From Candidatus Dojkabacteria bacterium (GTDB lineage Bacteria > Patescibacteriota > Dojkabacteria > SC72): DNA of 64,000 nucleotides. A program made the translations under genes and the position numbers. The stretch's first letter is position 1; each line of letters starts with the position of its first letter. Below are positions 12,689-39,314 of the stretch, in pieces. The notes under the pieces were generated by a model, which worked only from the letters and a program-made list of their open reading frames with translations, was not told the DNA's origin and did not search any database. The stretch is taken from assembly GCA_050950165.1 (NCBI GenBank), contig JBMNHC010000001.1:453744-517743 (forward strand), written 5' to 3'.

Positions 12689-13345
12689 CTAGCTGTTTGA
12701 TAGTACAAGTAAGATATTTTCACCTTGGGTGTTTTGGTAAGGGTATATAGTGTGATTACCCCAGTTTATCTTCTTCGTTCTTCTTTTTATCAACTCAATT
12801 CCTTCAGATGAGTATATATACGGTATCATAAATGTATACCTAGAATTAAATGATGTACGAGCTACTTTTACCTGTCCAGTCACCTTGTCTTCAACCCCTA
12901 TCCTTACTATTGGTATATCTTTTAATCGTTTTCTGTCATTTGGTAGATGTAGTACTTCTTCCATATCTTTAACTTTATTCGATACAGCTTTTAGAAGAGT
13001 TGAGGGGCATCTAAGTAGTTCTAAACTAGTAATGTTTCTGTTTCCGTCAAATGATGGATATATTAATATCCTACTTTCCTCATCTCTTGGATCAGGTAGA
13101 GAGTGCCTTGCAGCGTGTACAAAAGGCTCTGTTTTGTAGTAGTCTCCATATTCACCTATTAAATTTATAAGAGATTCATTATTTTTATCTCCCTCAGTTA
13201 CAATTATCTCTGGTTGAAGTTGTTCAAATATATGAGTGTAATCAATATAGGATATGTCTGTGTTCTCATACTCAGCATTTAGTCTTTTCGTTAACTCTCC
13301 TGCCTCTGCAGGAATCTCTGTTTCTCGTATGTTTGCCTCTAGCAT
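12689..13345 (-). CDS. hypothetical protein (occupies the position where pyrH normally sits)
   Basis: 218-aa ORF with no signal peptide or TM and no recognisable motif. It is antisense to the surrounding rpsB-tsf / frr genes. Confidence 0.4.
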   Translation of the reverse strand: MLEANIRETEIPAEAGELTKRLNAEYENTDISYIDYTHIFEQLQPEIIVTEGDKNNESLINLIGEYGDYYKTEPFVHAARHSLPDPRDEESRILIYPSFDGNRNITSLELLRCPSTLLKAVSNKVKDMEEVLHLPNDRKRLKDIPIVRIGVEDKVTGQVKVARTSFNSRYTFMIPYIYSSEGIELIKRRTKKINWGNHTIYPYQNTQGENILLVLSNS

Positions 13346-13463
13346 ATATATTTCCTCTATAAGTTATCCCTGTATTATCCTTCTTTAGTAGGTTGTAAGT
13401 CAAGCATATTGAGATTTTAGTCTTTTTAGAATATTATGTATCATAATTTGAATAGTAAAAAAT

Positions 13464-14009
13464 ATGGATATTAATATATTTAAAACAAATATTCAGAAGT
13501 GTATAGATAACCTAGTAGAAGACCTCTCTCAGATTAGAACAGGGCGAGCTACTCCAGAGTTAATTCAAGATATTAATGTTAAAGCATACGGAACAGAAGC
13601 CCCTTTGAAAAACTATGCCACTATTAATATCTCAGATACTCGTTCTCTTCTTGTAACACCTTGGGACAAAGGTATAGTAGATAGTATTGTTAGTGGTATA
13701 TCTACTTCTAACTTAGGTTTTAGTGCATCAGTAGAGGGTGATCATATTAGAGTTAGTATTCCAGAGTTAACCGAAGAGAGAAGAAAAGAATATGTAAAGG
13801 TAATGAAGGATAGAATAGAGGATGCTAGAATTGCTGTTAGACAGGTTAGACAGAAATTTATGAAAGATATTGATGATTCTTTAGGTTCTGGATTTTCAGA
13901 AGATGATGCAGATAGATTAAGAGAAGAAGGAGAGAAGGTTGTTAAGGATGCAAATGGTAAAATAGAGGAGATAAAGGATAATAAAGAGAAAGACCTTATG
14001 TCATTTTAA
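13464..14009 (+). CDS. frr: ribosome recycling factor
   Basis: IRTGRATPELIQDINVKAYGTEAPLKNYATI...LTEERRKEYVK matches the RRF family along its full length. Confidence 0.9.
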   Translation: MDINIFKTNIQKCIDNLVEDLSQIRTGRATPELIQDINVKAYGTEAPLKNYATINISDTRSLLVTPWDKGIVDSIVSGISTSNLGFSASVEGDHIRVSIPELTEERRKEYVKVMKDRIEDARIAVRQVRQKFMKDIDDSLGSGFSEDDADRLREEGEKVVKDANGKIEEIKDNKEKDLMSF

Positions 14010-14020
14010 CCATTTTTACT

Positions 14021-15163
14021 ATGACCATATTAGTAAACATACTTCTTCTTCTTTTAGTAATTAGTCTTCTTACCTTCATACATGAGTTAGGTCATTTCTT
14101 AGCTGCTAAGATAGTAGGTGCTAAGGTCTTTGACTTCTCTGTGGGTTTCGGTCCTAAAATATTCTCAAAGAGAATAGGGGATACTACATACAACTTAAGA
14201 GTTTTACCATTCGGTGGTTTTGTAAAGATATTAGGAGATGGAGATCCTACTGAAAAGAAAGAGGATTTAAAGGATAAAGGTAATCTTAAAAACAAGAGTA
14301 AGCTATCTCAGATATTTGTAATGCTTGCAGGAGTATCTATGAATATGCTCTTGGCAGTAGTTTTGTATACCGTCTTTCTCTCTTCTTCTGCTTGGAGACT
14401 AAATATTACTAGTGAGTACAAAGATTTTGATGCTACAGGAGCAGATGTCAAAATAGAGAGAGTTTCAGATCTACCATATGAACTACTAAAAGAGGGAGGT
14501 GCTGTAGAGTCAGGTATGTATGAAAAAGGATATATCAAGAGTGTTAATGGAGAGAGTATAGATGGGTTTGTAGAGTTTAAAGAGTATCTTTCTAACTTTA
14601 AAGAGAAGGTTGTTGATTTAGAGGTGTGTAGTGAAGATTTAGCAAGATGTGAGATATTCCCTACATCTGTAGATAAAGATGGTAGGGTAGGTATGTATAT
14701 TGGAGAGAATTATTCTGTGTTTATAGATTATTCAAACAACAAGATATTTTCTGGTTTTGCACATAGTGTAAATGTACTTAGGTTAACAGGTAAGGTATTA
14801 GGTACTCTTCTTTCACAAGCAAGGCAGAGTGGTGACTATTCTACTCTTTCAAATACAGTTAGTGGTCCTGTGGGTATATATTTTGTAGTAGACTATTTTA
14901 AAACGTTAGGTATATTTGTATTTTTAGGAATAATTGCAGATCTTTCTCTTTCATTAGCAATAATTAATCTTTTCCCTATACCTGCATTAGATGGGGGTAG
15001 GGCTATGATATTGTTAATAGAGAGTATTGTTAGGAGGGATTTAAATGAGAAGGTAGAGAGTATAATTATTAATATTAGTTTTGTTTTCTTAATTCTTCTA
15101 ATTATCGCTATTATGTTTAAAGATATTTTTAATATAAAAGAATTGCAGAGTTGGTTTAGATAG
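14021..15163 (+). CDS. rseP: RseP-like M50 site-2 protease with PDZ-like insert
   Basis: HELGHFLAAK (HExxH) in TM1, FPIPALDGG (LDG motif), and a central soluble insert. Confidence 0.8.
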   Translation: MTILVNILLLLLVISLLTFIHELGHFLAAKIVGAKVFDFSVGFGPKIFSKRIGDTTYNLRVLPFGGFVKILGDGDPTEKKEDLKDKGNLKNKSKLSQIFVMLAGVSMNMLLAVVLYTVFLSSSAWRLNITSEYKDFDATGADVKIERVSDLPYELLKEGGAVESGMYEKGYIKSVNGESIDGFVEFKEYLSNFKEKVVDLEVCSEDLARCEIFPTSVDKDGRVGMYIGENYSVFIDYSNNKIFSGFAHSVNVLRLTGKVLGTLLSQARQSGDYSTLSNTVSGPVGIYFVVDYFKTLGIFVFLGIIADLSLSLAIINLFPIPALDGGRAMILLIESIVRRDLNEKVESIIINISFVFLILLIIAIMFKDIFNIKELQSWFR

Positions 15164-15333
15164 TATATCTTTTAAGTAAGAATATTTATTTACTGCTCTA
15201 ATGGCTATAAGATTAAATAAAACAACAAAGATAATACTTGCAATAGTAATATTAATTCTTTCTGTTGCTCTAGGTTATTTAATATGGAGAATTAATCAAC
15301 CAGAGAGATTAGATCCTACAGATAGTGATGCGG
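15143..15333 (+). repeat. 5' conserved unit of the tandem surface-protein cassette (copy 1). It overlaps the last 7 codons of rseP, the leader, and the signal-anchor coding region.
   Basis: 191 nt with a single mismatch to 17002..17192. Confidence 0.85.
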
Positions 15334-16985
15334 CATATCCTACTTGTCCAGGGGGGTGTAATTGGAATGTTGGGTTACAGGAGTGTATTGGAGGAAGGGG
15401 ATGTGTAAGTGTTTCAAGCACTGGATGTCCTAGTGGATTGGTTCTTAAGGGACATGTGTGTTGTGAAGAATGTACATCAAATGAACCTCCTGGTGAATGT
15501 GTGTACTACCCTGAAAGAAAAGTTCCTAATTGTCCAAATTGTGCTAAGGGATACTATAGTTGTTCTAAAGGGGTTTGTCAGCCCTGCCAACCTGATGCGG
15601 AGGGGCTAACTCTTGATGTTTGTAGATCCAGAGCCGATAGTAGGAATGGTGTGACAGTACCAGAATTGTGTAAAAAATCTCTTTCCTATTGGGGTTGTAG
15701 TCAGAGAAAAGATAATCCAGAACTATACGATTTAATTCAGATTCCTTGTAAAGATGAACCCCCTTCTGAACCAGACTGTGGAGAAGATTTGGAACCTAAG
15801 TCATTTGCGTTTAATAAGGCTAATACTGATGCTAGTAAGATAGGACCGTTTCCTGAAGATGGTAAAGTAGTATTCTTTTTTAAGAGTTTGTTGCCTGATG
15901 TAGCAGGAGGTGGTCCATATAGACCTAAAATATCATTTAAGGTAGTAAGTACTGATAGTACGAGGAATGGACAAACATATGTATACACACCCTCTGCTGA
16001 TGAAGAGAGGAAGGAGACAATCTTCGCTATTAAAGAAGGAGAGTATTTACTCTTAACAGACTCGGATGACAACAATAATCAGGGAAGTCCTGAGTGCGCT
16101 CCTACTGAGAATAATCCTAAATACAAATCTTTTGGATGGATAGCACCTAGTGGTGGTTTGTGTGGTTCAGGTCTGTTAGGTCCTCCTACTGAGGGTAATA
16201 GAGTGCCATATGACAAACCAAGTATTGCTGCGTTTAGAAGCAAGTCTGTGAGTCAAGGGTATAAAGAACTTCCTAAGGGAGAGCAGTGTTGGGCAGACTG
16301 GAGAGAGTGGCCTGGAGACTACGACTTTAATGATTACTTCTTAATGGTCTCATATGTTACAGAACCTAAATCTCTTCTAACTGCAGATATATCTGTAGAA
16401 AAAAGTGCAATTGAGTCATGTATAAATGAAGAAACAGAAAATCCAGAAGCAGAGTTAGCATATTCAATAACCATTACAAACAAAGGAGGAGTAGCAGGTA
16501 CTGTATCGAAAGTGGTGGATACATTAGATAGTAAGGTTGTAGCAGGGTCTGTATCTTCAATATCTGATTCAGGTTCTTACTCTGAAGGAAAAATTACTTG
16601 GAACTTTACTCCTGCTTTGAGTCTTGATGCCAATGGGGGTAAAAAGGTATTAACGTACAAAGTAAAAGTTGCAAAAGAAAATTTTGGTGAATACAAAAAT
16701 GTTGTGGTAGTGACAACCTCTACGGGAGAAGTGACTGCAGAGTACAGTATTGTTGCAGATTGTATAATTACAACACCAGATACACCAGATAAACCTGGAG
16801 AGAAAGTACCTCAAACAGGTCTCTTTGATCTAGTTCTTTCTAGAATAGCTGCAGGTGTAATATTAGTAATATTCGGTGTCTTTGTATACAACATACCTAA
16901 TACAGTATTTACTTTTCATTATCGTAAGAAGAAAATATCATATAAATATAGAGAAAAGTTTGAAAAGAGAATGACAGGTAATTAG
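15201..16985 (+). CDS. Cys-rich cell-surface protein, paralog A (signal-anchor, Cys-rich ectodomain, DUF11-like repeat domain, VPQTG sortase-like C-terminal sorting signal)
   Basis: N-terminal MAIRLNKTTKIILAIVILILSVALGYLIW. 40+ Cys in the first ~350 aa. AELAYSITITNKGGVAGTVSKVVDTLDSKV resembles the DUF11/conserved-repeat domain. C-terminus KVPQTGLFD, hydrophobic helix, then basic tail HYRKKK. Confidence 0.7.
   Translation: MAIRLNKTTKIILAIVILILSVALGYLIWRINQPERLDPTDSDAAYPTCPGGCNWNVGLQECIGGRGCVSVSSTGCPSGLVLKGHVCCEECTSNEPPGECVYYPERKVPNCPNCAKGYYSCSKGVCQPCQPDAEGLTLDVCRSRADSRNGVTVPELCKKSLSYWGCSQRKDNPELYDLIQIPCKDEPPSEPDCGEDLEPKSFAFNKANTDASKIGPFPEDGKVVFFFKSLLPDVAGGGPYRPKISFKVVSTDSTRNGQTYVYTPSADEERKETIFAIKEGEYLLLTDSDDNNNQGSPECAPTENNPKYKSFGWIAPSGGLCGSGLLGPPTEGNRVPYDKPSIAAFRSKSVSQGYKELPKGEQCWADWREWPGDYDFNDYFLMVSYVTEPKSLLTADISVEKSAIESCINEETENPEAELAYSITITNKGGVAGTVSKVVDTLDSKVVAGSVSSISDSGSYSEGKITWNFTPALSLDANGGKKVLTYKVKVAKENFGEYKNVVVVTTSTGEVTAEYSIVADCIITTPDTPDKPGEKVPQTGLFDLVLSRIAAGVILVIFGVFVYNIPNTVFTFHYRKKKISYKYREKFEKRMTGN
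16748..16904 (+). repeat. 3' conserved unit of the tandem surface-protein cassette (copy 1). Encodes IVADCIITTPDTPDKPGEKVPQTGLFD...VILVIFGVFVYNIPNT.
   Basis: 157 nt with 2 mismatches to 18448..18604. Confidence 0.85.
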
Positions 16986-17001
16986 GGTTTTAGATATTAA
17001 G

Positions 17002-17192
17002 TTGCAGAGTTAGTTTAGATAGTATATCTTTTAAGTAAGAATATTTATTTACTGCTCTAATGGCTATAAGATTAAATAAAACAACAAAGATAATACTTGC
17101 GATAGTAATATTAATTCTTTCTGTTGCTCTAGGTTATTTAATATGGAGAATTAATCAACCAGAGAGATTAGATCCTACAGATAGTGATGCGG
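17002..17192 (+). repeat. 5' conserved unit of the tandem surface-protein cassette (copy 2)
   Basis: Near-identical to 15143..15333, including the TTGCAGAGTT boundary. Confidence 0.85.
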
Positions 17193-18673
17193 GAGGTGGT
17201 TTTTCTAATGAACGGTGCAGAAAGAACAGCTGTAGTTGTAAAGATAAAAACGGGAATAGTATAACCTGTGAAAAGTATAATGAGGGGAATCCTGAGAATA
17301 AATGTTATCACCACATATGTAAAGATAGTAATGGCAATACTCTAGGAGGGGTTTTCTCGACAAACTCTGATTCAGATTCCGCGTGTCGCGATTGTGGATT
17401 TGATACAAAACCAAAAGAGGAAGGAGGAGAGTGTAATTTTGGGTCAGAATGTGCTGCTTGTCCTTGGCCAAAGGTAGCAAACTGTTCTAATCACAAATGT
17501 GGATGTATCCTTCCAGATCAAATACCTGCAGATCAATTACAATGTGGTTCTATAACACCATGTAATCCTCCAGCATGTCCTCAAGGAATGGTAGATTGTG
17601 GTACTTCTGCAGATAGTGAGGATAAAACAGGTTGTTCTGCTCAGGGATCGTGTATTGCTGAGTGTACAATATGTAAGAATAAATCTATAATATTTAGACA
17701 TTGTAAAGCTGCACCTACAAATGTTTGTGATGGAGGTAGTTGGATAGATAAACCTAGTGGTAATATTGACTATGGTAAGAGTATAACCTTTAGTGCTAAA
17801 GCTAAAGATTCAGATGGTATTAAGAGAGACAGTATTGTAGTTAAAAAAGGAACAGAAACATTATCCGAATGTAGTGGTGTAGAGAGTGTAAATTGTATTA
17901 AGTTAACAGAAGCAGCTACAGAGACAACTATTAGTGGAACATTAAGTACCCCTTCTAAGCAGTTAGCACCAGGTAACTATACTATCTCTATGAGCTGGAA
18001 AGACAAGAAAGATGTTGGTGGAGAAGCATGTGCATTAACTACATCTTTTGTAGTACTTGAAAAGCAAACTAATCCTGATTGGGAGATCTCTAAGTCTGTG
18101 GTAGAGCAATGTATTGATGATAGTACAGAAGATCCCAAAGCAGAGTTAACGTATACCATTGCTATTAAAAATACAGGAGATGGAGCGGGTCAGATATCCA
18201 AGATAGAGGATGTATTGGATGATAAGGTTCAAAGTAGCTTTGTTCAATCATCTTCTATTACCCCTCCAGGTAAATATGAGGGTGGAAAGATTATCTGGGA
18301 TTACATATCTTCCCCTCTCTCACTAGCAGCTGGAGAAAGTAAGGTATATACGTATAAGATACTTTTGGATAAAGAAAATTTTGAAACATATAGTAACACT
18401 GCAACATTGACTCCTGTAGGTTCTCCTTCTCTTTCTTCTTCTGCAAATATTGTTGCAGATTGTATAATTACAACACCAGATACACCAGATAAACCTGGAG
18501 AGAAAGTACCTCAAACAGGTCTCTTTGATTCAGTTCTTTCTAGAATAGCTGCAGGTGTAATATTAGTAATATTCGGTGTCTTTGTATACAACATACCTAA
18601 TACAATGTTTGCTAGTAAAGAACCATCCTACAAGTATAGAGATAGATTTGAAAGAAAAGTAGCAAACAGGTAA
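17060..18673 (+). CDS. Cys-rich cell-surface protein, paralog B (same architecture, different ectodomain)
   Basis: The first 44 aa and last ~52 aa are identical to paralog A. The middle has a different Cys pattern (CRKNSCSCKDKNGNSITC...). DUF11-like AELTYTIAIKNTGDGAGQISKIEDVLDDKV. C-terminus KVPQTGLFD + TM + basic tail. Confidence 0.7.
   Translation: MAIRLNKTTKIILAIVILILSVALGYLIWRINQPERLDPTDSDAGGGFSNERCRKNSCSCKDKNGNSITCEKYNEGNPENKCYHHICKDSNGNTLGGVFSTNSDSDSACRDCGFDTKPKEEGGECNFGSECAACPWPKVANCSNHKCGCILPDQIPADQLQCGSITPCNPPACPQGMVDCGTSADSEDKTGCSAQGSCIAECTICKNKSIIFRHCKAAPTNVCDGGSWIDKPSGNIDYGKSITFSAKAKDSDGIKRDSIVVKKGTETLSECSGVESVNCIKLTEAATETTISGTLSTPSKQLAPGNYTISMSWKDKKDVGGEACALTTSFVVLEKQTNPDWEISKSVVEQCIDDSTEDPKAELTYTIAIKNTGDGAGQISKIEDVLDDKVQSSFVQSSSITPPGKYEGGKIIWDYISSPLSLAAGESKVYTYKILLDKENFETYSNTATLTPVGSPSLSSSANIVADCIITTPDTPDKPGEKVPQTGLFDSVLSRIAAGVILVIFGVFVYNIPNTMFASKEPSYKYRDRFERKVANR
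18448..18604 (+). repeat. 3' conserved unit of the tandem surface-protein cassette (copy 2)
   Basis: Matches 16748..16904. Confidence 0.85.
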
Positions 18674-18721
18674 AATTGTATGATATAATCCAAACGCTTT
18701 AATTTGAAGGAGGTAAACCCC

Positions 18722-18922
18722 ATGGCAGTAATAGTTCATGCCAATGAAAATATAGATAGTGCTCTTAAAAGACTTCACAGAGAAGTAATGAGAGAGAAGA
18801 TTTTAGAAACATACAGAGAGAAAGCTTACAGAAGTAAGAAAGCTGACTTAGCTATCCAAAAGAGAAGAGAGTGGGCTAAAATGAAAAGAAGAAGAAGAAC
18901 TGCTGCAAGAAGGGCTAGGTAA
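18722..18922 (+). CDS. rpsU: ribosomal protein S21
   Basis: MAVIVHANENIDSALKRLHREV...RRRTAARRAR. A GGAGGT Shine-Dalgarno sits 8 nt upstream of the ATG at 18722. Confidence 0.85.
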   Translation: MAVIVHANENIDSALKRLHREVMREKILETYREKAYRSKKADLAIQKRREWAKMKRRRRTAARRAR

Positions 18923-18939
18923 ATTTTTACTTTTAATAT

Positions 18940-19383
18940 ATGTCCCTTTTAGAAGATATTCGCAAAGATATGTTTAGTGCTAGTAAGCAGGGTATATCTG
19001 CTGAAGTAGATATACTTAAGATGGCTCTTGCAGAGATTAAAAATGAGGAGATTAAAAAAGGTGAAAGTCTTTCTGATGATGAAGTCATTAAAGTCTTAAG
19101 AAGAGAGAGTAAAAAGATTGAAGATTCCATTGTTGAATTTACTAAAGCAGGAAGAGAAGATCTTGTTGTAAAAGAAAAAGCTCAATTTGATATCTTACAA
19201 AAATATCTACCAGCACTTTTGGATGAATCTAAGATAGAGGCTGTAGTTAAAGATGTAATATCTAAAATTGGTGCAGAAGGAATGAGAGATATGGGTAGAG
19301 TAATGGGTACTGTAATGAAAGAGTTAGAAGGTCAAGCAGATGGTAGAGTTGTTAAAGAAATTGTTCAGAAGCATCTTTCATAA
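18940..19383 (+). CDS. yqeY: GatB/YqeY-domain protein
   Basis: Full-length similarity to YqeY (MSLLE..DM....K...........V.................LSD.E.......E.KK..DS..EF...........K.......YLP). Confidence 0.8.
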   Translation: MSLLEDIRKDMFSASKQGISAEVDILKMALAEIKNEEIKKGESLSDDEVIKVLRRESKKIEDSIVEFTKAGREDLVVKEKAQFDILQKYLPALLDESKIEAVVKDVISKIGAEGMRDMGRVMGTVMKELEGQADGRVVKEIVQKHLS

Positions 19384-19826
19384 TGGAAGATATTTCAGTA
19401 GAGATATTTAATAGTGAATTGGTTTTAGAAATAGAGCCTACATTTAGTATCCCTTTTAGTGAGATAGAGAGAGCATACAAGAAAATATTTTCTAAATATG
19501 CTCTTAAGGATATTAATATTGTCTTTGTTAAATCTGAATATATTCAAGAGTTGAATAGACAGTACAGAGGAATAGATGCACCTACAGACGTTCTCTCATT
19601 TGAGATGGAGAGTAAGGTTAGTGGAGAGATATATATCTGTCCTGAATATATATATCTTACATTTCAAGAAACTCTCTTTGAAGAAGAGATACTCAGATTG
19701 ATAATTCATGGTACACTACATATATTAGGATATGACCATTTAGAGAGTATGAATGACTCTGTAGATGAACAGATGTTTAAAATACAGGAAGAATTACTTT
19801 TAAAGTTTAAACAGTTATGTTTTTAA
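19383..19826 (+). CDS. ybeY: rRNA maturation endoribonuclease YbeY
   Basis: HGTLHILGYDH zinc-binding motif; ~147 aa. Confidence 0.8.
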   Translation: MEDISVEIFNSELVLEIEPTFSIPFSEIERAYKKIFSKYALKDINIVFVKSEYIQELNRQYRGIDAPTDVLSFEMESKVSGEIYICPEYIYLTFQETLFEEEILRLIIHGTLHILGYDHLESMNDSVDEQMFKIQEELLLKFKQLCF

Positions 19827-28027: not shown

Positions 28028-28927
28028 ATGAATACACAGTCTACATCTACAATATCAATAGAGAGGGATGAAGAGCAGAGAGTAGGTAAGGTACTTCTTT
28101 CTAATGGTTGGTCTGAAGAGGTAGATAGAAATGAGTATGTAAAAGCAAGGTACAGGAGTCCTTTAGGTTCTGTTGCAATACTGTATAGTAGTGGTAAGTT
28201 GGTATTTCAGGGTAAGCAAGATTTTAATTCTTTAATATTAGATATTAAACAGGAATCTTCAGAAGAGAGTTCTTCTTTTGTAGACCATATTGGAGTAGAT
28301 GAGGTAGGTAAAGGAGATTACTTTGGTCCTCTAGTTGTAGTTAGTTGTTTTGTAGATAGAGAGTTTGAAAAAAGAATCTCTCTTTTAGGGTTTGGAGATT
28401 CTAAGAGGTTTTCGGATAGGAAGATATTAGAACTTTTTAAAGAGATAGAGGAGTATCCTTACTACTTTAGCTCTGTAGTTGTACCTGCTGAGTACAACAG
28501 ATTAGTACTGGAGTATGGTAATGTTGCTGTACTACTTGCAAAGCAGCATAGTATTGTAATAGAGAAGGGGCTTTCTAAATTAAAATTAGATGGAGTGGAG
28601 TGTAAGCGAGTGGTAATAGATCAGTTTTCTTCGTCAAAAGATAGGGTAAGAAAAGAGTTAGGAGAGTTGGGTAGTAGGGTAGAGTTAATTCAATTTCACA
28701 AAGGTGAGTCAGATCTAGCTGTAGCTGCAGCTTCTATAATAGCGAGAGCCATATTTTTAAAAGAGTGGGAGAAGATGAATGAGAGATATGATTTAGTATT
28801 TCCTAAGGGTGCAACTAGTGTAGTAGAGTTTGGTAAGGAGTTTGTATCTAAGTATGGTGAAGATGAGCTTAGGAATGTAGCAAAGATTGGATTTAGAACA
28901 ACAGATGAGATATTAAAACTCTTTTAG
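28028..28927 (+). CDS. rnhC: ribonuclease HIII-like (RNase HII-family catalytic domain with N-terminal extra domain)
   Basis: HIGVDEVGKGDYFGPLVVV catalytic DEVG(R/K)G motif preceded by an ~85-aa N-domain containing ...SGKLVFQGK, typical of RNase HIII. Confidence 0.7.
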   Translation: MNTQSTSTISIERDEEQRVGKVLLSNGWSEEVDRNEYVKARYRSPLGSVAILYSSGKLVFQGKQDFNSLILDIKQESSEESSSFVDHIGVDEVGKGDYFGPLVVVSCFVDREFEKRISLLGFGDSKRFSDRKILELFKEIEEYPYYFSSVVVPAEYNRLVLEYGNVAVLLAKQHSIVIEKGLSKLKLDGVECKRVVIDQFSSSKDRVRKELGELGSRVELIQFHKGESDLAVAAASIIARAIFLKEWEKMNERYDLVFPKGATSVVEFGKEFVSKYGEDELRNVAKIGFRTTDEILKLF

Positions 28928-29805
28928 TTTTTCTTCTTATCTTCTTTCAAGGATTTAATAAGTAGTACTGTAGTTATGGATATTGATAGTAGGATTATTA
29001 ATTCTACTGTATAGCTATTTATTGTTGTTTCTGTATTTATACTTGTACTATCTAGTCCACTAGAGAAGTTACCGATAGCTACTCTCTTGTAGAGTATGTC
29101 TGAAATATGCCACTGTTTTACAGTTAATTCTTCTTGTAAGCTATCTTTAGGGTAAAGTTTTTTAGAGTCTCTGTTTATAAAAAGGTATTTAGGTTTGTAG
29201 TTTCCCTTACTATTAAACACTTCTATTCTTCCAATAGGGGCTAATACATAGTTAGAGTTATTCTGTATGGTATATTTAATTTTTAGTGGAGAGATGAACG
29301 GTATCCCTTTCTGAACGACATCTATCTTTGCTGTAAAGTCTGATGTAGTAATACCTTTAACTTGGTCATCTCTATCTACAATGTGTAGTACTACTAGTTG
29401 TGATACAGCCTTATTTATATACACGCTATCCTTCTCTGTTACCTCAGAGAGCACTAATATATTGAAGTAGGTTCCTTTTTCTAAGTTCTCAACAGGATAT
29501 ATTTCATAAGGTATTTCTTTTTTACTGTTTGCTTTAACAACAAATGTATCTGTATCTACCTTTAGAAAGATATTTTTACTATCTTTAATAATTTCATCAT
29601 CTTTATAGTTATAGTCATTTGTACTTAAGAGTATCTCAATATCTTTATCTTGAGTATTTTCGATAATAACGGAGCTTAGTTTTCTCTCTCCTTGTGATAG
29701 AGAGAGTTCATTTACTGCAGGAAAGAGAGTAGTAGCATGTACAGAAGATATACCCAGAAGGGTATAAAGGAATATTGATATACCGATTGTTTTGATTAGT
29801 TTCAT
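28924..29805 (-). CDS. surface-cluster protein 4: signal peptide + Ig-like ectodomain + C-terminal TM anchor (hypothetical)
   Basis: Signal peptide MKLIKTIGISIFLYTLLGISSVHA. C-terminal LIILLSISITTVLLIKSLKEDKKKN. Last gene of the 4-gene minus-strand operon. Confidence 0.5.
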   Translation of the reverse strand: MKLIKTIGISIFLYTLLGISSVHATTLFPAVNELSLSQGERKLSSVIIENTQDKDIEILLSTNDYNYKDDEIIKDSKNIFLKVDTDTFVVKANSKKEIPYEIYPVENLEKGTYFNILVLSEVTEKDSVYINKAVSQLVVLHIVDRDDQVKGITTSDFTAKIDVVQKGIPFISPLKIKYTIQNNSNYVLAPIGRIEVFNSKGNYKPKYLFINRDSKKLYPKDSLQEELTVKQWHISDILYKRVAIGNFSSGLDSTSINTETTINSYTVELIILLSISITTVLLIKSLKEDKKKN

Positions 29806-30764
29806 TTCTTTCTCATTCTCCTCTTACTAGTTCTTACTATTATAGCAGTAAGAAGTATGAGAAGAATAGCAAGGATAAGTTTCCATGGTATTATCCAGAA
29901 TGTGGTTTCTTCTGTTAATACAGCAAACCCAGGTTGGAAACTTCTGTATGTGACAAAGAGTTTAGCTTTAAGAGGACCCAATGCTATCTTCTTTGATGGG
30001 GAAAGATATCCTTGTTGACTCCAGTTGTCTATGTAATTACCGAGGTTATCTCTTAGTAAGCTCTGTCTATTTCTATTAAAGGGAACTCTAGCTACTTCCT
30101 GCTTGAAGATGTTTTCTATAACTATCTCACCTGCAGGGGTAATATGTGTATCTCCTAAGTTTTTAATCTGTGTTATGAGGTCTACATCTACTTTCTCATA
30201 TGTCTTTTTATCTGTAACAAATCTTAGTAGCTCTGCACTCTCTACAAACTCATCTCCTACTTGTAAGAGGATAGGGGTTCCTGCTGCTAAGTTTGTATAG
30301 GTTACAGTTCCCTGTTGTTGTGGTGCTGATTGTGATATTAAAAATATCTGAGTATTGTACTCTCCATTTGTAATATCTAGCGGTACATTAATAGTATATT
30401 TTAACTTTGTATTTTTATTCGGTTCTAAAAATAGAGATTCTTTATCAATTGTAACCCACTTTGAAGCAGAGTAGAGAGCTTTACTATCTTCCTCTTCAGT
30501 TAATATTACTGCTGTTCCTGGTTGATTCTCTATCTGTTTAAATGATCTAACATATATGTTGTATGTATCTGCACTCTGAGATAGGTTCCAAAAGACTAGT
30601 TCTTCTGAATATGTTCCTCCTGGTTTTACTTTTAGTACTTTGTAAGTAGGAGAGACACCGATAGAAAGAGGACTCTGTGCAAAAGTAGGCGTTAGGCCTA
30701 AACAGAGTAAAAGTATGGGCAGTATTAATATTTTATTATATTCCTTTAAGCGTTTTAGTATCAT
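29802..30764 (-). CDS. surface-cluster protein 3: signal peptide + PapD/Ig-like N-domain + C-terminal TM anchor with poly-basic tail (hypothetical)
   Basis: Signal peptide ...LLCLGLTPTFAQS. SIGVSPTYKVLKVKPGGTYSEELVFWNLS resembles a chaperone/Ig-fold first strand. C-terminal WKLILAILLILLTAIIVRTSKRRMRKK. Confidence 0.5.
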   Translation of the reverse strand: MILKRLKEYNKILILPILLLCLGLTPTFAQSPLSIGVSPTYKVLKVKPGGTYSEELVFWNLSQSADTYNIYVRSFKQIENQPGTAVILTEEEDSKALYSASKWVTIDKESLFLEPNKNTKLKYTINVPLDITNGEYNTQIFLISQSAPQQQGTVTYTNLAAGTPILLQVGDEFVESAELLRFVTDKKTYEKVDVDLITQIKNLGDTHITPAGEIVIENIFKQEVARVPFNRNRQSLLRDNLGNYIDNWSQQGYLSPSKKIALGPLKAKLFVTYRSFQPGFAVLTEETTFWIIPWKLILAILLILLTAIIVRTSKRRMRKK

Positions 30765-30774
30765 TATTTAACTA

Positions 30775-31857
30775 TTAGTAGTAACCACCACATATGAAGG
30801 TGATTGTTTCTTGGTATGAACCTGCAACAGCTGATGCCCCAGCTCTTGCTCCGTATGTTATTGTTGCACTCTCAGCAGAAGCCTGAGCTCCATTTTGAGA
30901 AAGTATTAACTTTGCAGCAGAAGAGGTTCTATCTATTGTTCCAAATGTTCCAAGTGTACTGTCAGAGAAAGATGCAGGTACTACTGCACCAGTAGGTTGA
31001 GAAACTGTAATTCCAAATCCTTCACTTCCAGCAACAGTCAAGTCTATTGTATCGTTAGGGCCAGAGGGTATTAAATATGTAGTAGCAGAACTTTTCCAAA
31101 GACCTGCATCTCCAGATGTTCCATTCCCTGTACCGTAGACAGCCCAGTAGTATCCACTAGTGGCTGTAGTTGAGATTGAGTTTGTTGCTGTTGCGTAGTT
31201 ACCACCAGGATAGAGGGTACCTAGATTAACAGCATTTCCTGTTATTGAACATCCTACACTAGGAGCCGAAGATACTATAGCAGATACTACTACTTGATCA
31301 CTTGTTAGCAATTGGATCTTAAATGTCATTGAATCTGCTGTAGTTCCTTGGAATGCTGTGACGATAACATCATGAACACCAGCTGCACTGTTTGTACCAA
31401 GAACTCCTAAATTACCTGCAATCTTTACGCCGTATGTAGTTCCTCCAGTTAAAGCAGTCAAACCAGTAATCGTTATTGTATCAGATGTTCCAGTTGAACC
31501 TTGGCTACATGTAGCAGAGAGAGTTCCAGGAAGAGCTGCATCTATTGCCCATCCTGTAGAAGCTAAATCAACTTCAGAAGATGAAACACCTGTAGCTGTT
31601 AAGGATCCTGCAGTTCTACACCATGTGGTATCTCCTGCATCTGGAAATTCGATAGTTATTGTTCCTCCTGTTGGAATAGTGGTAGTGGTGTTGATAGCTA
31701 GAACATATTCGATACCTGTTGCAATATTTGTTTGTATCCTATTCATGTATAGGTATACATTTGCTAATGTTGCAGCGTGCGAAGAGTAATGGAGAAGAAG
31801 TGCTGATACAACAGCAATAAAGATGGTAGGTATTACAACTCTAATTATATTCTTCAC
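30775..31857 (-). CDS. surface-cluster protein 2: secreted Thr/Gly/Ser/Ala-rich beta-rich protein (hypothetical)
   Basis: Signal peptide ...LLHYSSHAATLA. About 45% T+G+S+A. No TM. Ends ...ICGGYY. Confidence 0.5.
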   Translation of the reverse strand: MKNIIRVVIPTIFIAVVSALLLHYSSHAATLANVYLYMNRIQTNIATGIEYVLAINTTTTIPTGGTITIEFPDAGDTTWCRTAGSLTATGVSSSEVDLASTGWAIDAALPGTLSATCSQGSTGTSDTITITGLTALTGGTTYGVKIAGNLGVLGTNSAAGVHDVIVTAFQGTTADSMTFKIQLLTSDQVVVSAIVSSAPSVGCSITGNAVNLGTLYPGGNYATATNSISTTATSGYYWAVYGTGNGTSGDAGLWKSSATTYLIPSGPNDTIDLTVAGSEGFGITVSQPTGAVVPASFSDSTLGTFGTIDRTSSAAKLILSQNGAQASAESATITYGARAGASAVAGSYQETITFICGGYY

Positions 31858-31943
31858 TTTTTAGGCAGATTAAATTTATGATTAAAATAGAAATTCTATC
31901 TACAGCTTATATACAGAATTTTATAATGTCAAGGGGTTTCAAT

Positions 31944-33143
31944 CTAATATCTAGGTACCAAAACTAAGGTTATGGATTCTTGATAATCTGAAGCAGGTGT
32001 GTATGAAGTTCCTGGTTTTGCAATAACCTTTAAAGCCATTCTACCTGAGACTATGGGAGCACTACCATCATATATTTTTTTAGGAGATGTACTTATTTCT
32101 CCTACTGAGTTAATAGTACCTGAGTAGTTTGTAGTGGCAGATATTACACCGAAGAGTGGAGAACTGTTGTCATATGCAATATATTCACTTTGAAGACCGA
32201 AGCCAGATTGTACTTGATCTAAGTTAGCAGTAGCAGACACAATCTTTTCTAAAGTAGTAGGGCTGTACAATCCTCCGTACAATCCTTTTCCCATTATCGC
32301 AAATCCTCCTTCTGAACTTGTTTCAGCGTCCATCCATATTCTGTCTCCAGCTGTAATAGCTGCAGATCCTCCTATCAATTCATATGCTCCTGTGAATGAA
32401 ATATTGTAAGGGGGAGAACTTTCTGCTGTTTGTCCACTACTTCCTGCAATATCAATATCGAAAAAGAGAGAACCTACAGCTGTAGTAGCAGAGCTTACTG
32501 GTCCTGCCTCTGTTTGAGTAAAATCTCCTTTAAGAGCAAATATCTTAATGTAGTAAGTTTTACTTGCTTCTAATCCTTGAATATTGAATACCTCTGTTTC
32601 CCAGTCTTCCTTTGTCATGAAATCAGAGATGTTGTGTGTACTTGCACTCTCTGGCATAAAGGTAGATGCATCAATATATCTAATATCTGATACAAAATTG
32701 TCCAAAGAAATCATTAACGCATAAAGGGTGTCTGTGGGGTTTCCTTGAGTATTAATTTCAAATCTTGCCTTGTTGTAGCATCCTCCTGTACCACATATTG
32801 CTACCATACCACCACTACTTAACTCAGTAGGTCCAGTGGTACAACTAGAAGATCCTGAAGTGGTAGTTTCAAAACATGATGCTATTGGAACAGCAGGTAA
32901 GAATGCTACCTCAGGGCTTGTTCCTAGTTTGTAAGATGTAGAATATGTTCTTGGATTACTAGATATCATTCCTACACCAAGTAGGGCAGAGTAGTTTCCA
33001 CTAGCACTCTCTACAATTCCTCCTCCTTGGGTTGTAGCTCCCACTATCTTAAAGTTTGTAGAGTCTAGCTCTTCAGCAACGACCTTCATAGGCAAGATTA
33101 AAAGAAGGAGTAGTGGAAGGAGTTTGAGGTTCTTAATATTCAT
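31944..33143 (-). CDS. surface-cluster protein 1: secreted Ser/Thr/Gly-rich protein (hypothetical)
   Basis: Signal peptide MNIKNLKLLPLLLLLILPMKVVA. No TM. Ends ...LVLVPRY. First gene of the operon. Confidence 0.5.
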   Translation of the reverse strand: MNIKNLKLLPLLLLLILPMKVVAEELDSTNFKIVGATTQGGGIVESASGNYSALLGVGMISSNPRTYSTSYKLGTSPEVAFLPAVPIASCFETTTSGSSSCTTGPTELSSGGMVAICGTGGCYNKARFEINTQGNPTDTLYALMISLDNFVSDIRYIDASTFMPESASTHNISDFMTKEDWETEVFNIQGLEASKTYYIKIFALKGDFTQTEAGPVSSATTAVGSLFFDIDIAGSSGQTAESSPPYNISFTGAYELIGGSAAITAGDRIWMDAETSSEGGFAIMGKGLYGGLYSPTTLEKIVSATANLDQVQSGFGLQSEYIAYDNSSPLFGVISATTNYSGTINSVGEISTSPKKIYDGSAPIVSGRMALKVIAKPGTSYTPASDYQESITLVLVPRY

Positions 33144-34238: not shown

Positions 34239-35384
34239 ATGAGGTATATACTTTTTCTCTTTTTACTACTTCTGTTTCCATCTTTTACTTACGCTGATGA
34301 TTTCCATGAGAGTGGAGATTCCTTTGTAAATGATTTCAGAGATGCACTAGGGTATGGGTATCGAACTTTACCTTTGCAAGGCAAATGCCCTATGTGTGTA
34401 GAGTTTAATCTAGAAGATGTTAAGGGTAGTAGTGTTGAATACATATTAAACAATGTAGGGCTTTTTGATATTACAAGTAGAGATCCAAAGTTTGGATTAA
34501 TACGTAATCCTCAGAGATATACATCGTTAGATCTTCCACCTTTTGCAAATGCTTCTTTCATATATTGGTATCTAAATGAAGCAGATCATAGTGTACAGAT
34601 AGAAAAGATTAAGGTATTTCTTTCTAGATATGATAGTAGTTTAGGAGATTTAAGAAATGTTTTGTTTGTAAATGGTCATTTTGAAGAGATACCCACAAGG
34701 GTATTGTTCGATATATACCCAAGAGCAGGAATTGTTAAAGAGTACGAAGGTTTAGGGATAGTGGGGCAAGGAAAAGGAGGATCTTTAATTCTAGATTCTC
34801 TGTTTGTTAAACCAACTGTATATTTTAGTCATTGGGAGCTATCTGTATCTAACAAGAAAGGATATATTCGTGTATATGTAAAGAACAGCTCTGATTACTT
34901 AGAGAGAAAAATTACATATTCTCACCAAGAATATTCTTCTACTAGAGATTTTCTTCCTAATGAGACATATGTATATGAGTATGAGGTTGATATTGAAGAG
35001 AATAGTTCTGTAGGTTTTGCATCTATTCATAATCCGAATAGCAGAAAAGAGTGTATTGGTTTTGGAGAACATCTAGAATCCAACTTTATTGGAGAATCTG
35101 CAGTTGTTGTGGGAGTTAGAAAAGAGGGAGAGATTCTTTATCCATATGTGTCTTCACGACTTAAACCTTGGGGAGAGGCATTTTGTATTAACAGATTAGC
35201 TCATACAGTTCACTCTATGGTAATTAGATATGCAGAAGAGGAAGAGGTTAAGGGTGTAGAGAGTACAGAGAGTATAGATATTGTATCATTGCCTAAAACA
35301 GCAAAATTATCAATTTTACTATCTACACTACCTTTACTTGTTGTAGTTAGTGGAGTTTGGTACTATCTAAAAAGGGAAATATAA
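34239..35384 (+). CDS. secreted, C-terminally anchored hypothetical protein
   Basis: Signal peptide MRYILFLFLLLLFPSFTYA. C-terminal ...SLPKTAKLSILLSTLPLLVVVSGVWYYLKREI (LPKTA followed by TM and a basic tail). Confidence 0.45.
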   Translation: MRYILFLFLLLLFPSFTYADDFHESGDSFVNDFRDALGYGYRTLPLQGKCPMCVEFNLEDVKGSSVEYILNNVGLFDITSRDPKFGLIRNPQRYTSLDLPPFANASFIYWYLNEADHSVQIEKIKVFLSRYDSSLGDLRNVLFVNGHFEEIPTRVLFDIYPRAGIVKEYEGLGIVGQGKGGSLILDSLFVKPTVYFSHWELSVSNKKGYIRVYVKNSSDYLERKITYSHQEYSSTRDFLPNETYVYEYEVDIEENSSVGFASIHNPNSRKECIGFGEHLESNFIGESAVVVGVRKEGEILYPYVSSRLKPWGEAFCINRLAHTVHSMVIRYAEEEEVKGVESTESIDIVSLPKTAKLSILLSTLPLLVVVSGVWYYLKREI

Positions 35385-36924: not shown

Positions 36925-38352
36925 ATGAAGATACAATTCCTAGGTGCTACAAGAACAGTAACGGGTTCTTGCTATTATATAGATACTGGAACCTTTAAAT
37001 TTTTGGTTGATTGTGGTGCTTTCCAAGGTAAAGATGAATTAGAGAAATTAAACTATGAACCATTTCCTTTTGATCCTGCCTCTATAGATGCAATATTTCT
37101 TACTCACGCTCACTATGACCACTGTGGAAGAATCCCCATATTAGTTAAGCAAGGTTTTAAAGGTAGAATATTCTCTACACAACCAACTAGAGATTTAGCT
37201 AGAATTGTTCTACTTGATGCTGCTAATTTGCAAAGGGAGTCATATGAGAAATGGACTGTTAGAAGTAGAGAGGAGAGTGAGCAGAAGGAGCTTTCTGAGG
37301 AAGGTTCTTTGTATGAACAGAGGAAACCTCTCTTTTCAGAAAGTGATGTAGAAAGTATGATGCAGTTGTTTGAGGTATATCCCTACGGTGCTTCTGTTAA
37401 CTTACACAATGGTGTTGAGTTTAGATTTAGAGATGCTGGGCATATTTTAGGCTCCGCTATTATGGAGTTTTGGGTAAAAACAGATGCAGGTAGAGAGAGA
37501 AAGATTGTATTTTCTGGAGACTTAGGTCAGCCTGGAGCAAGAATTGTAAGAGATCCAGACTTAATTAGAGAAGCAGACTATGTAATATGTGAGTCTACAT
37601 ATGGTAATAGGTTGCACAAAAACAAAGATGAGACTGTACTAGAACTTCTCTCTATACTAAAACAGGCACAAGAAGAGGGTGGTAATGTATTAATTCCATC
37701 TTTTGCAATTGAGAGAACACAAGAAGTTTTGTATGAGATTAATCTGTTTGTAGAAAACAAATTACTAGATCCAATGCCTGTATATTTAGATAGCCCTATG
37801 GCTTCTAGGGCTACTGCTATTTTCAGGCAGTATCCTACCTTCTATGATGAAGATGCTAGAAGATTACTTGATAAGGGAGATGATCCTTTTAATTTCCCTG
37901 GATTAGAAAAGATAGAGTCTGTTGAAGATTCTAAAAGATTAGTATCTAAAAATGGTGTTGTAATTATTGCTGGTAGTGGGATGTGTACTGGTGGGAGAAT
38001 AGTTCACCACATTAAGAATCATATATATAAGCCTAGTACTCATATGATTTTTGTTGGGTATCAGGTGGAGGGAACACTTGGTAGGAAGTTAGTGGATGGT
38101 GAAAAGGATATTAAAGTTATGGGTAAACCTGTTGAAGTTCATGCAAAGATACATACATTGGGAGGTTTCTCTGCTCATGCTGACCAGAGAGACCTAAGAT
38201 ATTGGTTAAGAAGCTTCGGTCATACCCCTAAGAAGATATTCATTACACACGGTGATGAAGAGATTGCCATCGGTTTTGCTACAAATATTAAGAGTGAATT
38301 AAATATTGAAACAGATGTTCCTAAATTAAATGAGGTATTTGAATTAAAGTAA
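36925..38352 (+). CDS. metallo-beta-lactamase / beta-CASP family ribonuclease (RNase J / CPSF-like)
   Basis: MKIQFLGATRTVTGSCYY N-terminus and HAHYDHCGRIP (HxHxDH). beta-CASP-type downstream His/Asp motifs. 475 aa. Confidence 0.7.
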   Translation: MKIQFLGATRTVTGSCYYIDTGTFKFLVDCGAFQGKDELEKLNYEPFPFDPASIDAIFLTHAHYDHCGRIPILVKQGFKGRIFSTQPTRDLARIVLLDAANLQRESYEKWTVRSREESEQKELSEEGSLYEQRKPLFSESDVESMMQLFEVYPYGASVNLHNGVEFRFRDAGHILGSAIMEFWVKTDAGRERKIVFSGDLGQPGARIVRDPDLIREADYVICESTYGNRLHKNKDETVLELLSILKQAQEEGGNVLIPSFAIERTQEVLYEINLFVENKLLDPMPVYLDSPMASRATAIFRQYPTFYDEDARRLLDKGDDPFNFPGLEKIESVEDSKRLVSKNGVVIIAGSGMCTGGRIVHHIKNHIYKPSTHMIFVGYQVEGTLGRKLVDGEKDIKVMGKPVEVHAKIHTLGGFSAHADQRDLRYWLRSFGHTPKKIFITHGDEEIAIGFATNIKSELNIETDVPKLNEVFELK

Positions 38353-39296
38353 TGGATATACAGAAGATTTTAGGTATTGAAAAAGATATTAAAGATTTGA
38401 ACATTCAAGGAGCAACCAATGTTGCCATTGCTACCTTGGAAGGTATGAAGATATATATCTATGAATCTGAACAGAGTGATCCAGATCTGTTTTACAAAGA
38501 GCTAATGGAGGTTGGACAGAGATTGGCTAATGCAAGAGAGAATGAGCCTTTAGCTAGAAATGGTGTAGGGTATATTAAATATATGTACAAACAGAAGAAT
38601 ATTGATTTACATGATATTAAAAGTATGAAACAAGCTCTTGATGGGTTCTGTGAGCAGTTTCTTACAATGATTGCGGACAGTAAAAGATCTATCATTGAAC
38701 AGTGTGTTCCTAGATTGAAGTTTTTTGAGAATGTTCTTACTCACTGTCACTCTTCTACAGCTCTTGCAGTGATAAAGGGTATAGGGGAGGGGAAGGATTC
38801 TTTTGATGTAGTATGTACTGAATCTAGACCTAGATACCAGGGTAGAAAGACTGCTAGAAGTCTTTTGAATGAAGGCATTTCTACTACTATGATTGTTGAT
38901 AGTGCAGTTGAATCTTTTATCATTGGAAGAGGATCTGTTCCTATCGATACTATCTTTATCGGTAGTGATCAGATAACAATGAGTGGATATTGTATAAATA
39001 AGATAGGGAGTTGGGGAATAGCTATGAGTGCATACCATGCTAGTAAGCCTGTATATGTTGTTTCACCACTTTTAAAGGTAGACCCTAGTATTGGAGTAAA
39101 TGATTTAGTAATTGAAGTGAGGGAAGATAGAGAGCTATGGCCTGATGCACCCAAAGACCTTATGATTTACAATCCTGCTTTTGAGGTTGTTGATAGGGAT
39201 TTAGTTACTGGTTTTTTGACCGAATTTGGTATAGTAAAGCCTAGGGAGATAGCTGATATTATTCGTGCTAAATATGCATGGCTTTTTGAAACTTAA
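38352..39296 (+). CDS. eIF-2B alpha/beta/delta-family isomerase, probable ribose-1,5-bisphosphate isomerase
   Basis: eIF2B-family fold length (314 aa), with a conserved ...CTESRP..QG...A..L...GI..T. core. It is immediately followed by an AMP-phosphorylase-type gene. MtnA-type methylthioribose-1-P isomerase cannot be excluded from sequence alone. Confidence 0.6.
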   Translation: MDIQKILGIEKDIKDLNIQGATNVAIATLEGMKIYIYESEQSDPDLFYKELMEVGQRLANARENEPLARNGVGYIKYMYKQKNIDLHDIKSMKQALDGFCEQFLTMIADSKRSIIEQCVPRLKFFENVLTHCHSSTALAVIKGIGEGKDSFDVVCTESRPRYQGRKTARSLLNEGISTTMIVDSAVESFIIGRGSVPIDTIFIGSDQITMSGYCINKIGSWGIAMSAYHASKPVYVVSPLLKVDPSIGVNDLVIEVREDRELWPDAPKDLMIYNPAFEVVDRDLVTGFLTEFGIVKPREIADIIRAKYAWLFET

Positions 39297-39314
39297 TTTA
39301 AAATTTTAACTAGA

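Follow-up and report, generated by a model that had tools for sequence, protein, structure and literature searches.

The LPXTG sorting signal of sortase substrates (TIGR01167/PF00746), known from Staphylococcus aureus protein A and the MSCRAMMs, places a hydrophobic-P-x-T-G motif in a proline-rich linker, a few residues ahead of a membrane helix and a net-basic end, and it stands behind adhesin stalks of the CnaA and CnaB types. We identified a module with this layout at the C-termini of two tandem paralogs, here called A and B, that are encoded in a 64,000-nucleotide stretch of a Candidatus Dojkabacteria bacterium genome (assembly GCA_050950165.1, contig JBMNHC010000001.1, positions 453,744 to 517,743; 'the window' below). 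We favour, with moderate confidence, the reading that A and B are anchored in sortase fashion by way of a form of the LPXTG signal specific to the lineage. The Dojkabacteria module differs from the classical signal in having V or I more often than L at its first position, [LI]-F-D after the glycine, fixed G and L positions in the helix, and a tail of approximately 20-58 residues with an FE[KR][KR]V end, whereas the classical tail consists of some 5-10 arbitrary basic residues. The curated hidden Markov models (HMMs) for LPXTG signals miss the Dojkabacteria module.

The variant first position has precedents. [VI]PxTG is an established sortase motif: IPQTG (RrgB), VPDTG (RrgC), VPPTG (Cpa) and EVPTG (Spy0128) have been discussed as sortase sorting signals (PMC5640630, PMC3019223). 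These class C/B sortase pilins of Streptococcus pneumoniae (RrgB, RrgC) and Streptococcus pyogenes (Cpa, Spy0128) resemble the Dojkabacteria proteins in the V or I, in the Q at the third position (RrgB) and in their isopeptide-type immunoglobulin-like (Ig-like) domains; A weakly matches the NCBIfam model RrgB_K2N_iso_D2 (E 0.087). In contrast to the pilins, A and B have neither a pilin motif nor a pilus sortase gene beside them, and they occupy a housekeeping slot rather than a pilus islet.

Two further kinds of system are comparable. The YSIRK/G-S plus LPXTG proteins of staphylococci and streptococci likewise pair a family-specific N-terminal signal with a C-terminal signal on unrelated passengers; the Dojkabacteria N-terminal module lacks YSIRK and is instead conserved for approximately 15 residues past its hydrophobic segment (WRVNQ...APTDSEA). 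The PEP-CTERM, PGF-CTERM, GlyGly-CTERM and MYXO-CTERM systems, served by exosortase, archaeosortase, rhombosortase and myxosortase, also combine a short motif, a helix and a basic C-terminal end on many different surface proteins of one lineage, with conservation inside the helix that hints at recognition within the membrane. The Dojkabacteria module departs from these in its sortase-type PxTG signature and its much longer tail; no CTERM model matches it, and the neighbourhood of the genes yielded no candidate enzyme of polytopic type.

Within the Candidate Phyla Radiation (CPR), a sortase family (fam000526) is present in more than half of the genomes, and the envelope has been inferred to be Gram-positive-like (Meheust et al. 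2019, PMC6744442). For SR1, WWE3 and TM7 genomes, sortases along with predicted sorted proteins have also been reported (Kantor et al. 2013, PMC3812714). The predicted sorted proteins of WWE3 and TM7 and the fam000526 report have the superphylum, the inferred monoderm envelope and the inferred route of anchoring in common with the Dojkabacteria family. They concern a plain LPXTG pattern; the Dojkabacteria module, its fixed genomic slot and its extended conserved features are not described there. For Dojkabacteria or WS6, literature searches on sortases gave general CPR statements; the one paper among those searched that names both Dojkabacteria and sortase (PMC6744442) says nothing specific to the lineage.

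A conserved C-terminal module

The translated reading frames of A and B end in ...PGEKVPQTGLFDLVLSRIAAGVILVIFGVFVYNIPNTVFTFHYRKKKISYKYREKFEKRMTGN and ...PGEKVPQTGLFDSVLSRIAAGVILVIFGVFVYNIPNTMFASKEPSYKYRDRFERKVANR, respectively, and have in common the string ...PDTPDKPGEKVPQTGLFD[L/S]VLSRIAAGVILVIFGVFVYNIPNT..., after which each protein continues into a basic tail (Table 1). VPQTG lies at nt 16806-16820 in A (residues 536-540) and at nt 18506-18520 in B (residues 483-487), and the candidate sortase-substrate peptide spanning the motif is GEKVPQTGLFDS. The hydrophobic core, IAAGVILVIFGVFVY, begins 8 residues past the motif glycine. Across the 57 proteins of the window, [LIV]PxTG occurs three times, against 0.54 expected from shuffles; two of the three occurrences are the C-terminal sites of A and B. 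These two copies are not independent observations, because both sit in a 157-nt tract that is identical at 155 positions.

Relatives were found in number: 67 in a search with B, and 344 at E <=0.001 in an exhaustive HMMER search that took the last 200 residues of A as query; 203 sequences were retrieved. P-x-T-G-[LIVMF]-[hydrophobic]-[DEN] lies within the last 110 residues of 152 of the 203, and the retrieved sequences without it are mostly unrelated multi-CLIPPER proteins or fragments. The residue before P in these 152 is V in 69, I in 36 and L in 19, and the x position holds Q in 72 and E in 40.

A family criterion independent of the C-terminus, the N-terminal module described below, picked 110 proteins. 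The strict pattern PxTG-hydrophobic-hydrophobic-[DEN] is present in 103 of them, and the other seven have PQTS-IFD, PxTA-[IL][FL]D, PDTA-LPT, PETG-LFG or PDTG-ITD; all 110 have P-x-T-[G/A/S] before the C-terminal helix. A full-length alignment of 50 family members, reaching down to approximately 31% identity, has P484, T486, G487, D490, G499, G506 and E531 invariant and F489, L502 and F530 conserved in at least 90%. The P, T and G codons each appear in four synonymous forms across 26 distinct DNA versions; this synonymous variation indicates selection on the motif at the protein level. A scan of species-representative genomes gave the motif in 23 of 23 confirmed loci, all from Dojkabacteria or 'Patescibacteria'. 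Judged by these alignments, the C-terminal signal is a conserved feature of a lineage-wide family and not a product of chance.

Duplicated tracts in A and B

Protein A is identical in sequence to ACOX0X_02350 (NCBI), a hypothetical protein from a metagenome-assembled genome (MAG) of Candidatus Dojkabacteria bacterium. Compared by BLASTP, A and B are identical at 44 of 45 N-terminal residues, have unrelated Cys-rich heads in the middle, and are 51% identical over the last 233 aligned positions. Two pairs of nearly identical DNA tracts account for parts of both ends (Table 1). The 3' tract in A encodes IVADCIITTPDTPDKPGEKVPQTGLFDLVLSRIAAGVILVIFGVFVYNIPNT, that is, the linker, motif and helix.

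The edges of the tracts are sharp, with approximately 50% protein identity alongside (16650-16747 versus 18347-18447, and 16905-16985 versus 18605-18673). Such boundaries beside diverged sequence indicate recent gene conversion or cassette exchange between A and B via their conserved ends.

An earlier note, drawn from the letters of this DNA, had described both paralogs as ending in KVPQTG, about 22 hydrophobic residues and a basic tail, all within the 157-nt repeat. Translation bears out the motif, the hydrophobic helix and the basic tails (net charge +7 and +4). The hydrophobic length was close, the uninterrupted core having 15 residues, or approximately 24 with NIPNTVFTF counted in. The repeat does have the coordinates given and does contain linker, motif and helix, but the diverged cytoplasmic tail falls outside it.

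Domain organization

In both A and B, the linker is directly preceded by a CLIPPER domain, which in surface adhesins forms a stalk of the CnaA-like isopeptide kind (PMC12617251). Its last strand reads ...AEYSIVADC in A and ...SSANIVADC in B. K345, D384, D387 and N446 do not vary across the family alignment and might supply the Lys-Asn isopeptide pair and the catalytic Asp or Glu expected of such a domain. The linkers that precede the motif are Pro/Glu-rich throughout the family and variable in length.

The AlphaFold2 model of B (mean predicted local distance difference test, or pLDDT, of 80) consists of an N-terminal helix (7-31), a disordered stretch, beta-rich domains, a disordered linker, a helix (492-510) and a short helix (525-535), in that order. 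Residues 341-465, which include the CLIPPER domain, are modelled with a pLDDT of approximately 97. VPQTG is placed in the disordered linker (pLDDT <50), approximately 5 residues ahead of the 492-510 helix. Foldseek returned generic tandem Ig-like matches, among them the sortase-anchored adhesins Cna, Cnm, ClfA, BspA and PrgB. The predicted layout of A and B is thus that of a sortase-anchored adhesin, with a variable Cys-rich head, a CLIPPER stalk, a Pro/Glu-rich linker and a signal, and by sequence the two are members of a Dojkabacteria-wide family of variable surface adhesins.

The N-terminal consensus of the family is a basic start, some 18-20 hydrophobic residues, G-[YF]-L-[IL]-W-R-V-N-Q and then ..A-P-T-D-S-E-A, in which W29, R30, N32 and A44 are invariant. 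The hydrophobic segment of A and B, which comes after a basic region and is approximately 19 residues long, contains small residues, SVA|LG, that offer a possible cleavage site, but its length would also suit an anchor. The N-terminal and C-terminal modules occur together in approximately 95% of full-length members. Both family ends are also borne by a passenger protein with Flg_new repeats and a quite different middle (L006 8522-9982).

A fixed genomic slot

Family genes occupy a conserved position in the order tsf-frr-rseP-[X]-rpsU-yqeY-ybeY-pth, where X stands for one or two family copies. This order was found in all loci with enough flanking sequence, in a survey that covered the window, the contigs from protein look-up and the 23 species-representative loci, including that of a distant, GC-richer member. 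The family gene lies on the same strand as rseP, at distances from an overlap to 115 nt. Across window 14021-18922 and loci L002-L029 and L033, where this slot is used throughout, two tandem copies are present in five genomes. Other contexts were met on short contigs, with the family gene after mfd (P0069) or after a phosphoglycerate mutase gene (P0155). The adjacency to rseP is weak evidence of a functional link, because all of the neighbouring housekeeping genes are equally syntenic.

The slot of some genomes has an extra gene, for a Cys-rich surface protein of approximately 1000 aa with an HxH (M23-like) motif (L022 10162-13314, L028 4036-6957). We considered the extra slot genes of L022, L028 and L033 as sortases and rejected them: they encode large Cys-rich surface proteins or a small protein of no known kind.

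Downstream of the B stop codon, 18674-18722 contains an extended -10 promoter-like element, T[AG]TGATATAATCC, with TG at 18681-18682 and TATAAT at 18684-18689, followed by a ribosome-binding site and the rpsU start (~18722). The element is kept in nearly all related loci. A simple promoter scan selected a hexamer other than this TATAAT, and promoter and terminator scans of 13300-19500 gave counts not above those of shuffles. The FEKKV codons were rejected as a -35 element of the rpsU promoter: their spacing to the conserved TGATATAAT is approximately 30 nt, upstream tandem copies retain FEK but lack that promoter, and the codons vary synonymously.

A second candidate substrate family

We identified a second, more canonical candidate sortase substrate at 34239-35384. 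The protein consists of a signal peptide, a domain without a Pfam match, an acidic linker, the motif, a helix and a KRK-type tail. Eighteen Dojkabacteria orthologs (39-99% identical) keep (E)VLG(I)xxLP[KQ]T[NAGS], which most of them follow with a helix and a KRK(IQR) tail. TIGR01167 gives the window protein 14.6 bits and its ortholog P0216 22.1 bits (cut-off 15.9). At the sequence level, this second family supports the presence of a sortase-type system in the lineage.

Search for a sortase

No sortase is encoded in the 64-kb window. The earlier note had reported no TLxTC-containing sortase reading frame there, and motif search, domain scan and syntenic labels all agree with it. TLxTC-like strings occur in the window only in a CCA-adding enzyme, a small open reading frame (ORF) and antisense ORFs, none of them plausible as a sortase. 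The pattern His...[TS]C...Arg fits no plausible ORF of the window, and a Pfam or NCBIfam scan of those window ORFs that could not be named by eye gave no match to PF04203. There is also no sortase among the Pfam labels of orthologous genes in the syntenic contigs.

We extended the search to 39 related loci, using the regular expression H...[TS]C...R and Pfam labels. No sortase was found in these approximately 0.5 Mb of Dojkabacteria sequence, which is weak evidence because the loci are mostly one and the same syntenic region. The loci searched took in the surroundings of the distant family members P0026, P0057, P0069, P0088, P0143, P0155 and P0184 and of the second-family members P0206 and P0221.

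Just past the right end of the window, a contig of the same species encodes a 274-aa polytopic membrane protein (L030 9814-10638) with approximately eight helices, no cysteine and no Pfam match. It does not qualify as a candidate sortase or exosortase. No exosortase-like or CPBP-like gene was found in the window.

Curated models gave the following results. The C-terminus of S. aureus protein A, our positive control, scored 26 bits with TIGR01167 (cut-off 15.9) and 38.6 bits with PF00746 (cut-off 20). Neither model matched A or B. Of five family representatives, four had no match and one reached 13.8 bits, below the cut-off of 15.9. The NCBIfam CTERM sorting-domain models gave no significant match, the nearest being PID-CTERM on one sequence (E 0.5, far below cut-off).

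Proposed anchoring and its alternatives

Under sortase-type anchoring, each protein would be exported through its conserved N-terminal signal or anchor. On its outer side would stand a rapidly evolving head rich in disulfides, an Ig-like domain and the CnaA-like CLIPPER stalk; the Pro/Glu-rich linker would follow, and then the sorting module, in which [V/I/L]-P-x-T-G-[L/I]-F-D precedes a membrane helix and a basic tail in the cytoplasm. These last two would most likely retain the protein in the membrane, where a sortase-type cysteine transpeptidase encoded elsewhere would cut between T and G and join the threonine to peptidoglycan or another acceptor. The G-LFD-helix-tail remnant would stay in the membrane. 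Tandem duplication and gene conversion would preserve both sorting modules while the heads diverge. Cleavage, enzyme and acceptor are the parts of this scheme that we infer; they are set on a module whose presence, conservation, position and domain context are observed.

Several observations weigh against this scheme. The models for LPXTG signals do not recognize the family, and the related loci yielded no sortase. A short, mostly basic tail is expected of an LPXTG signal; the tails of A and B have 20-22 residues and a neutral start (NIPNT...). Among the 45 of 152 members whose membrane core could be placed, the tail extends approximately 20-58 residues past the helix core, compared with approximately 5-10 in a plain sorting signal. 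The tail closes with a conserved [KR]FE[KR][KR]V, whose codons vary synonymously, and the [LI]-F-D after the glycine of the scissile bond is near-invariant; a plain sorting signal needs neither. In the alignments the helix positions of G-x2-L-x3-G are invariant or nearly so. The N-terminal hydrophobic segment, modelled as the long helix 7-31, may be an uncleaved anchor. Finally, 4 of the 18 second-family orthologs (54-66% mutually identical) end in ELPKT[AS]V or ELPRTRVD without a helix, so that conservation of LPxT is not always tied to a membrane-retention signal.

The LPXTG substrate architecture proposed in the earlier note therefore stands in its motif, helix, basic tail, family conservation and linker position behind a CnaA-like stalk, but the module fails the curated models and carries the additional conserved [LI]FD, helix face and long FEKKV-ended tail. 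These same features are the strength of a rather unlikely alternative, in which the C-terminus is a permanent, uncleaved membrane anchor, PxTG-[LI]FD is a juxtamembrane hinge or docking motif, and the likeness to LPXTG is superficial. The helix face and the FEKKV tail would then bind a partner in the membrane or cytoplasm, and the protein would stay tethered at one end or at both. Neither a helix G-x2-L-x3-G nor a long FE[KR][KR]V-ended tail is conserved in classical sortase signals, the sequence examined (window and related loci) holds no visible sortase, and the joint occurrence of the two terminal modules would fit a pair of interacting helices. Yet the hydrophobic-P-x-T-G spacing is what sortases read, and it is invariant over deep divergence. 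The motif is also predicted to lie in a disordered linker, not in a folded element. To make contact with a host, a membrane-tied adhesin of approximately 500 residues would need to span the wall, a problem that monoderms usually solve by wall linkage. Sortases, moreover, are common in CPR bacteria (PMC6744442).

We give less credence to a broader proposal, which we consider doubtful. In it, the N-terminal module (K/R-rich start, helix, WRVNQ..APTDSEA) and the C-terminal module (PxTG-[LI]FD, G-x2-L-x3-G helix, long FEKKV-ended tail) would constitute a Dojkabacteria-specific two-ended sorting cassette that presents interchangeable adhesin heads from a single fixed locus. Maturation of the cassette would go beyond a classical sortase, for example through removal of the N-terminal anchor by RseP, recognition of the C-terminal helix in the membrane, and a partner of the tail, and the signal would then be a new class rather than a variant of LPXTG.

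Slightly less probable again is a dedicated sorting system in which the two conserved ends are read by a non-sortase or additional enzyme. The enzyme could be the RseP-type protease, acting by regulated intramembrane proteolysis on a type II N-terminal anchor that has first received a site-1 cut close to xAPxDSxA; it could also be an unrecognized intramembrane 'sortase', akin to exosortase, rhombosortase or CPBP enzymes, that acts on the C-terminal helix. A family gene lies directly downstream of rseP wherever the flank sufficed, the distant GC-richer member included, but tsf, frr, rseP, rpsU, yqeY, ybeY and pth are as well conserved in their synteny, which makes the adjacency little informative, and P0069 and P0155 stand in other contexts. 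rseP is also near-universal in bacteria, and site-2 proteases cleave type II helices, not a type I C-terminal helix. The N-terminal conservation does exceed that of a generic signal peptide (W29, R30, N32, A44; WRVNQ..APTDSEA), unrelated passenger domains bear the same two ends, and the helix face, joined in the core subfamily by a YNxPN motif at the helix's inner end, suggests recognition within the membrane. Against an enzyme of the exosortase kind stand the lack of NCBIfam CTERM matches and of an exosortase-like or CPBP-like gene in the window. The last alternative, a coincidental motif in a simple C-terminal anchor that A and B have in common only through gene conversion of their shared tract, is refuted by the family-wide conservation of the motif, in 110 of 110 independently recognized relatives and 23 of 23 confirmed loci and with synonymous codon changes.

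CPR bacteria, or Patescibacteria, are mostly obligate episymbionts whose surface proteins decide the hosts to which they attach. Our analysis points to a single fixed locus in each Dojkabacteria genome, from which one or two fast-diversifying, disulfide-rich adhesins would be displayed through conserved sorting modules. This provides a handle for predicting host-contact proteins, for identifying the lineage's sortase along with its specificity, and for tests by metaproteomics. None of this alters the picture of the CPR envelope: the earlier note had said that wall anchoring would bear on envelope type, which is not new, because Gram-positive-like envelopes and sortases have already been published for CPR bacteria (PMC6744442, PMC3812714). 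The one part from which something new might come is the set of unusual, conserved features added to the signal.

Table 1. Coordinates of the A and B genes, their modules and associated features in the window.
Feature	Position (nt)	Strand	Description
rseP-type site-2 protease	14021-15163	+	Peptidase_M50 with PDZ; directly upstream of the family gene
5' homogenized repeat, copy 1	15143-15333	+	99% identity to 17002-17192 over 191 nt; spans the 3'-terminal 21 nt of rseP, the intergenic region and A codons 1-44 (N-terminal module MAIRLNKTTKIILAIVILILSVALGYLIWRINQPERLDPTDSDA)
Protein A gene	15201-16985	+	594 aa (ORF and translation); N-terminal module, Cys-rich head, CLIPPER stalk, linker, VPQTG module
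N-terminal module, A and B	15201-15335, 17060-17194	+	MAIRL.K..K, ~19 hydrophobic residues, LGYLIWRINQ, ..DPTDSDA
CLIPPER/DUF11 (PF01345) CnaA-like stalk domain, A	16410-16727	+	Residues 404-509; Pfam 33.1 bits (cut-off 24.6)
3' homogenized tract, A	16748-16904	+	155/157 nt identical to 18448-18604
V-P-Q-T-G-L-F-D, A	16806-16829	+	Putative sortase cleavage motif (T|G) and conserved [LI]FD
Membrane helix core, A	16845-16889	+	I549-Y563; carries the conserved G-x2-L-x3-G face
Cytoplasmic tail, A	16917-16982	+	HYRKKKISYKYREKFEKRMTGN; net +7 over 22 residues; has the family motif KYRxxFEK
5' homogenized repeat, copy 2	17002-17192	+	B upstream region and B N-terminal module
Protein B gene	17060-18673	+	537 aa; tandem paralog of A with like end modules and a different head
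CLIPPER/DUF11 stalk domain, B	18101-18412	+	Residues 348-451; Pfam 30.6 bits (cut-off 24.6)
3' homogenized tract, B	18448-18604	+	157 nt, 2 mismatches to the A copy
V-P-Q-T-G-L-F-D, B	18506-18529	+	Residues 483-490; disordered segment, pLDDT <50
Membrane helix core, B	18545-18589	+	I496-Y510; AlphaFold2 helix 492-510
Cytoplasmic tail, B	18611-18670	+	ASKEPSYKYRDRFERKVANR; net +4 over 20 residues; predicted short helix 525-535
Second candidate sortase substrate	34239-35384	+	Cleavable-looking signal peptide; ends ...SLPKTA-K-LSILLSTLPLLVVVSGVWYYL-KREI

Other genes in the window

Four consecutive genes for secreted proteins (399, 360, 320 and 293 aa) lie at 28924-33143 on the minus strand, in a cluster that is syntenic in relatives. 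The first gives a weak match to the NCBIfam model CPR_pilus_PamT (E 9.5e-5), and the last two resemble the membrane-anchored PamC/PamD chaperones in having a C-terminal membrane helix with a basic tail. By sequence, the cluster looks like the 'pam' operon for a donor-strand-exchange pilus, which has been found mainly in Saccharimonadia and Microgenomatia (bioRxiv 10.64898/2026.03.03.709456). A pam operon in Dojkabacteria, if true, would extend the range of Pam.

The gene content of the window fits a CPR genome, with low G+C, compact same-strand genes, an AMP phosphorylase and a ribose-1,5-bisphosphate isomerase. Genes for the last two (the isomerase being of the IF-2B family) are adjacent at 38352-40823 on the plus strand and form a CPR-typical nucleotide-salvage pair; the window has no RuBisCO gene. 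GC skew is strongly positive almost throughout (cumulative 0.19 to 7.68) and genes are mostly on the plus strand, with the main dips of the skew at minus-strand gene clusters (~30-32 kb, 40-42 kb and 50-54 kb). Probably the window belongs to a single replichore and represents its leading strand.

A further gene, at 40786-42639 on the minus strand, encodes a 617-aa surface protein with a transglutaminase core, a signal peptide and a C-terminal helix with a basic tail but without PxTG. Another, at 60225-62714 on the plus strand, encodes an 829-aa protein with DUF8128 and TrwB/VirD4-like ATPase domains, labels that come from its L030 ortholog.

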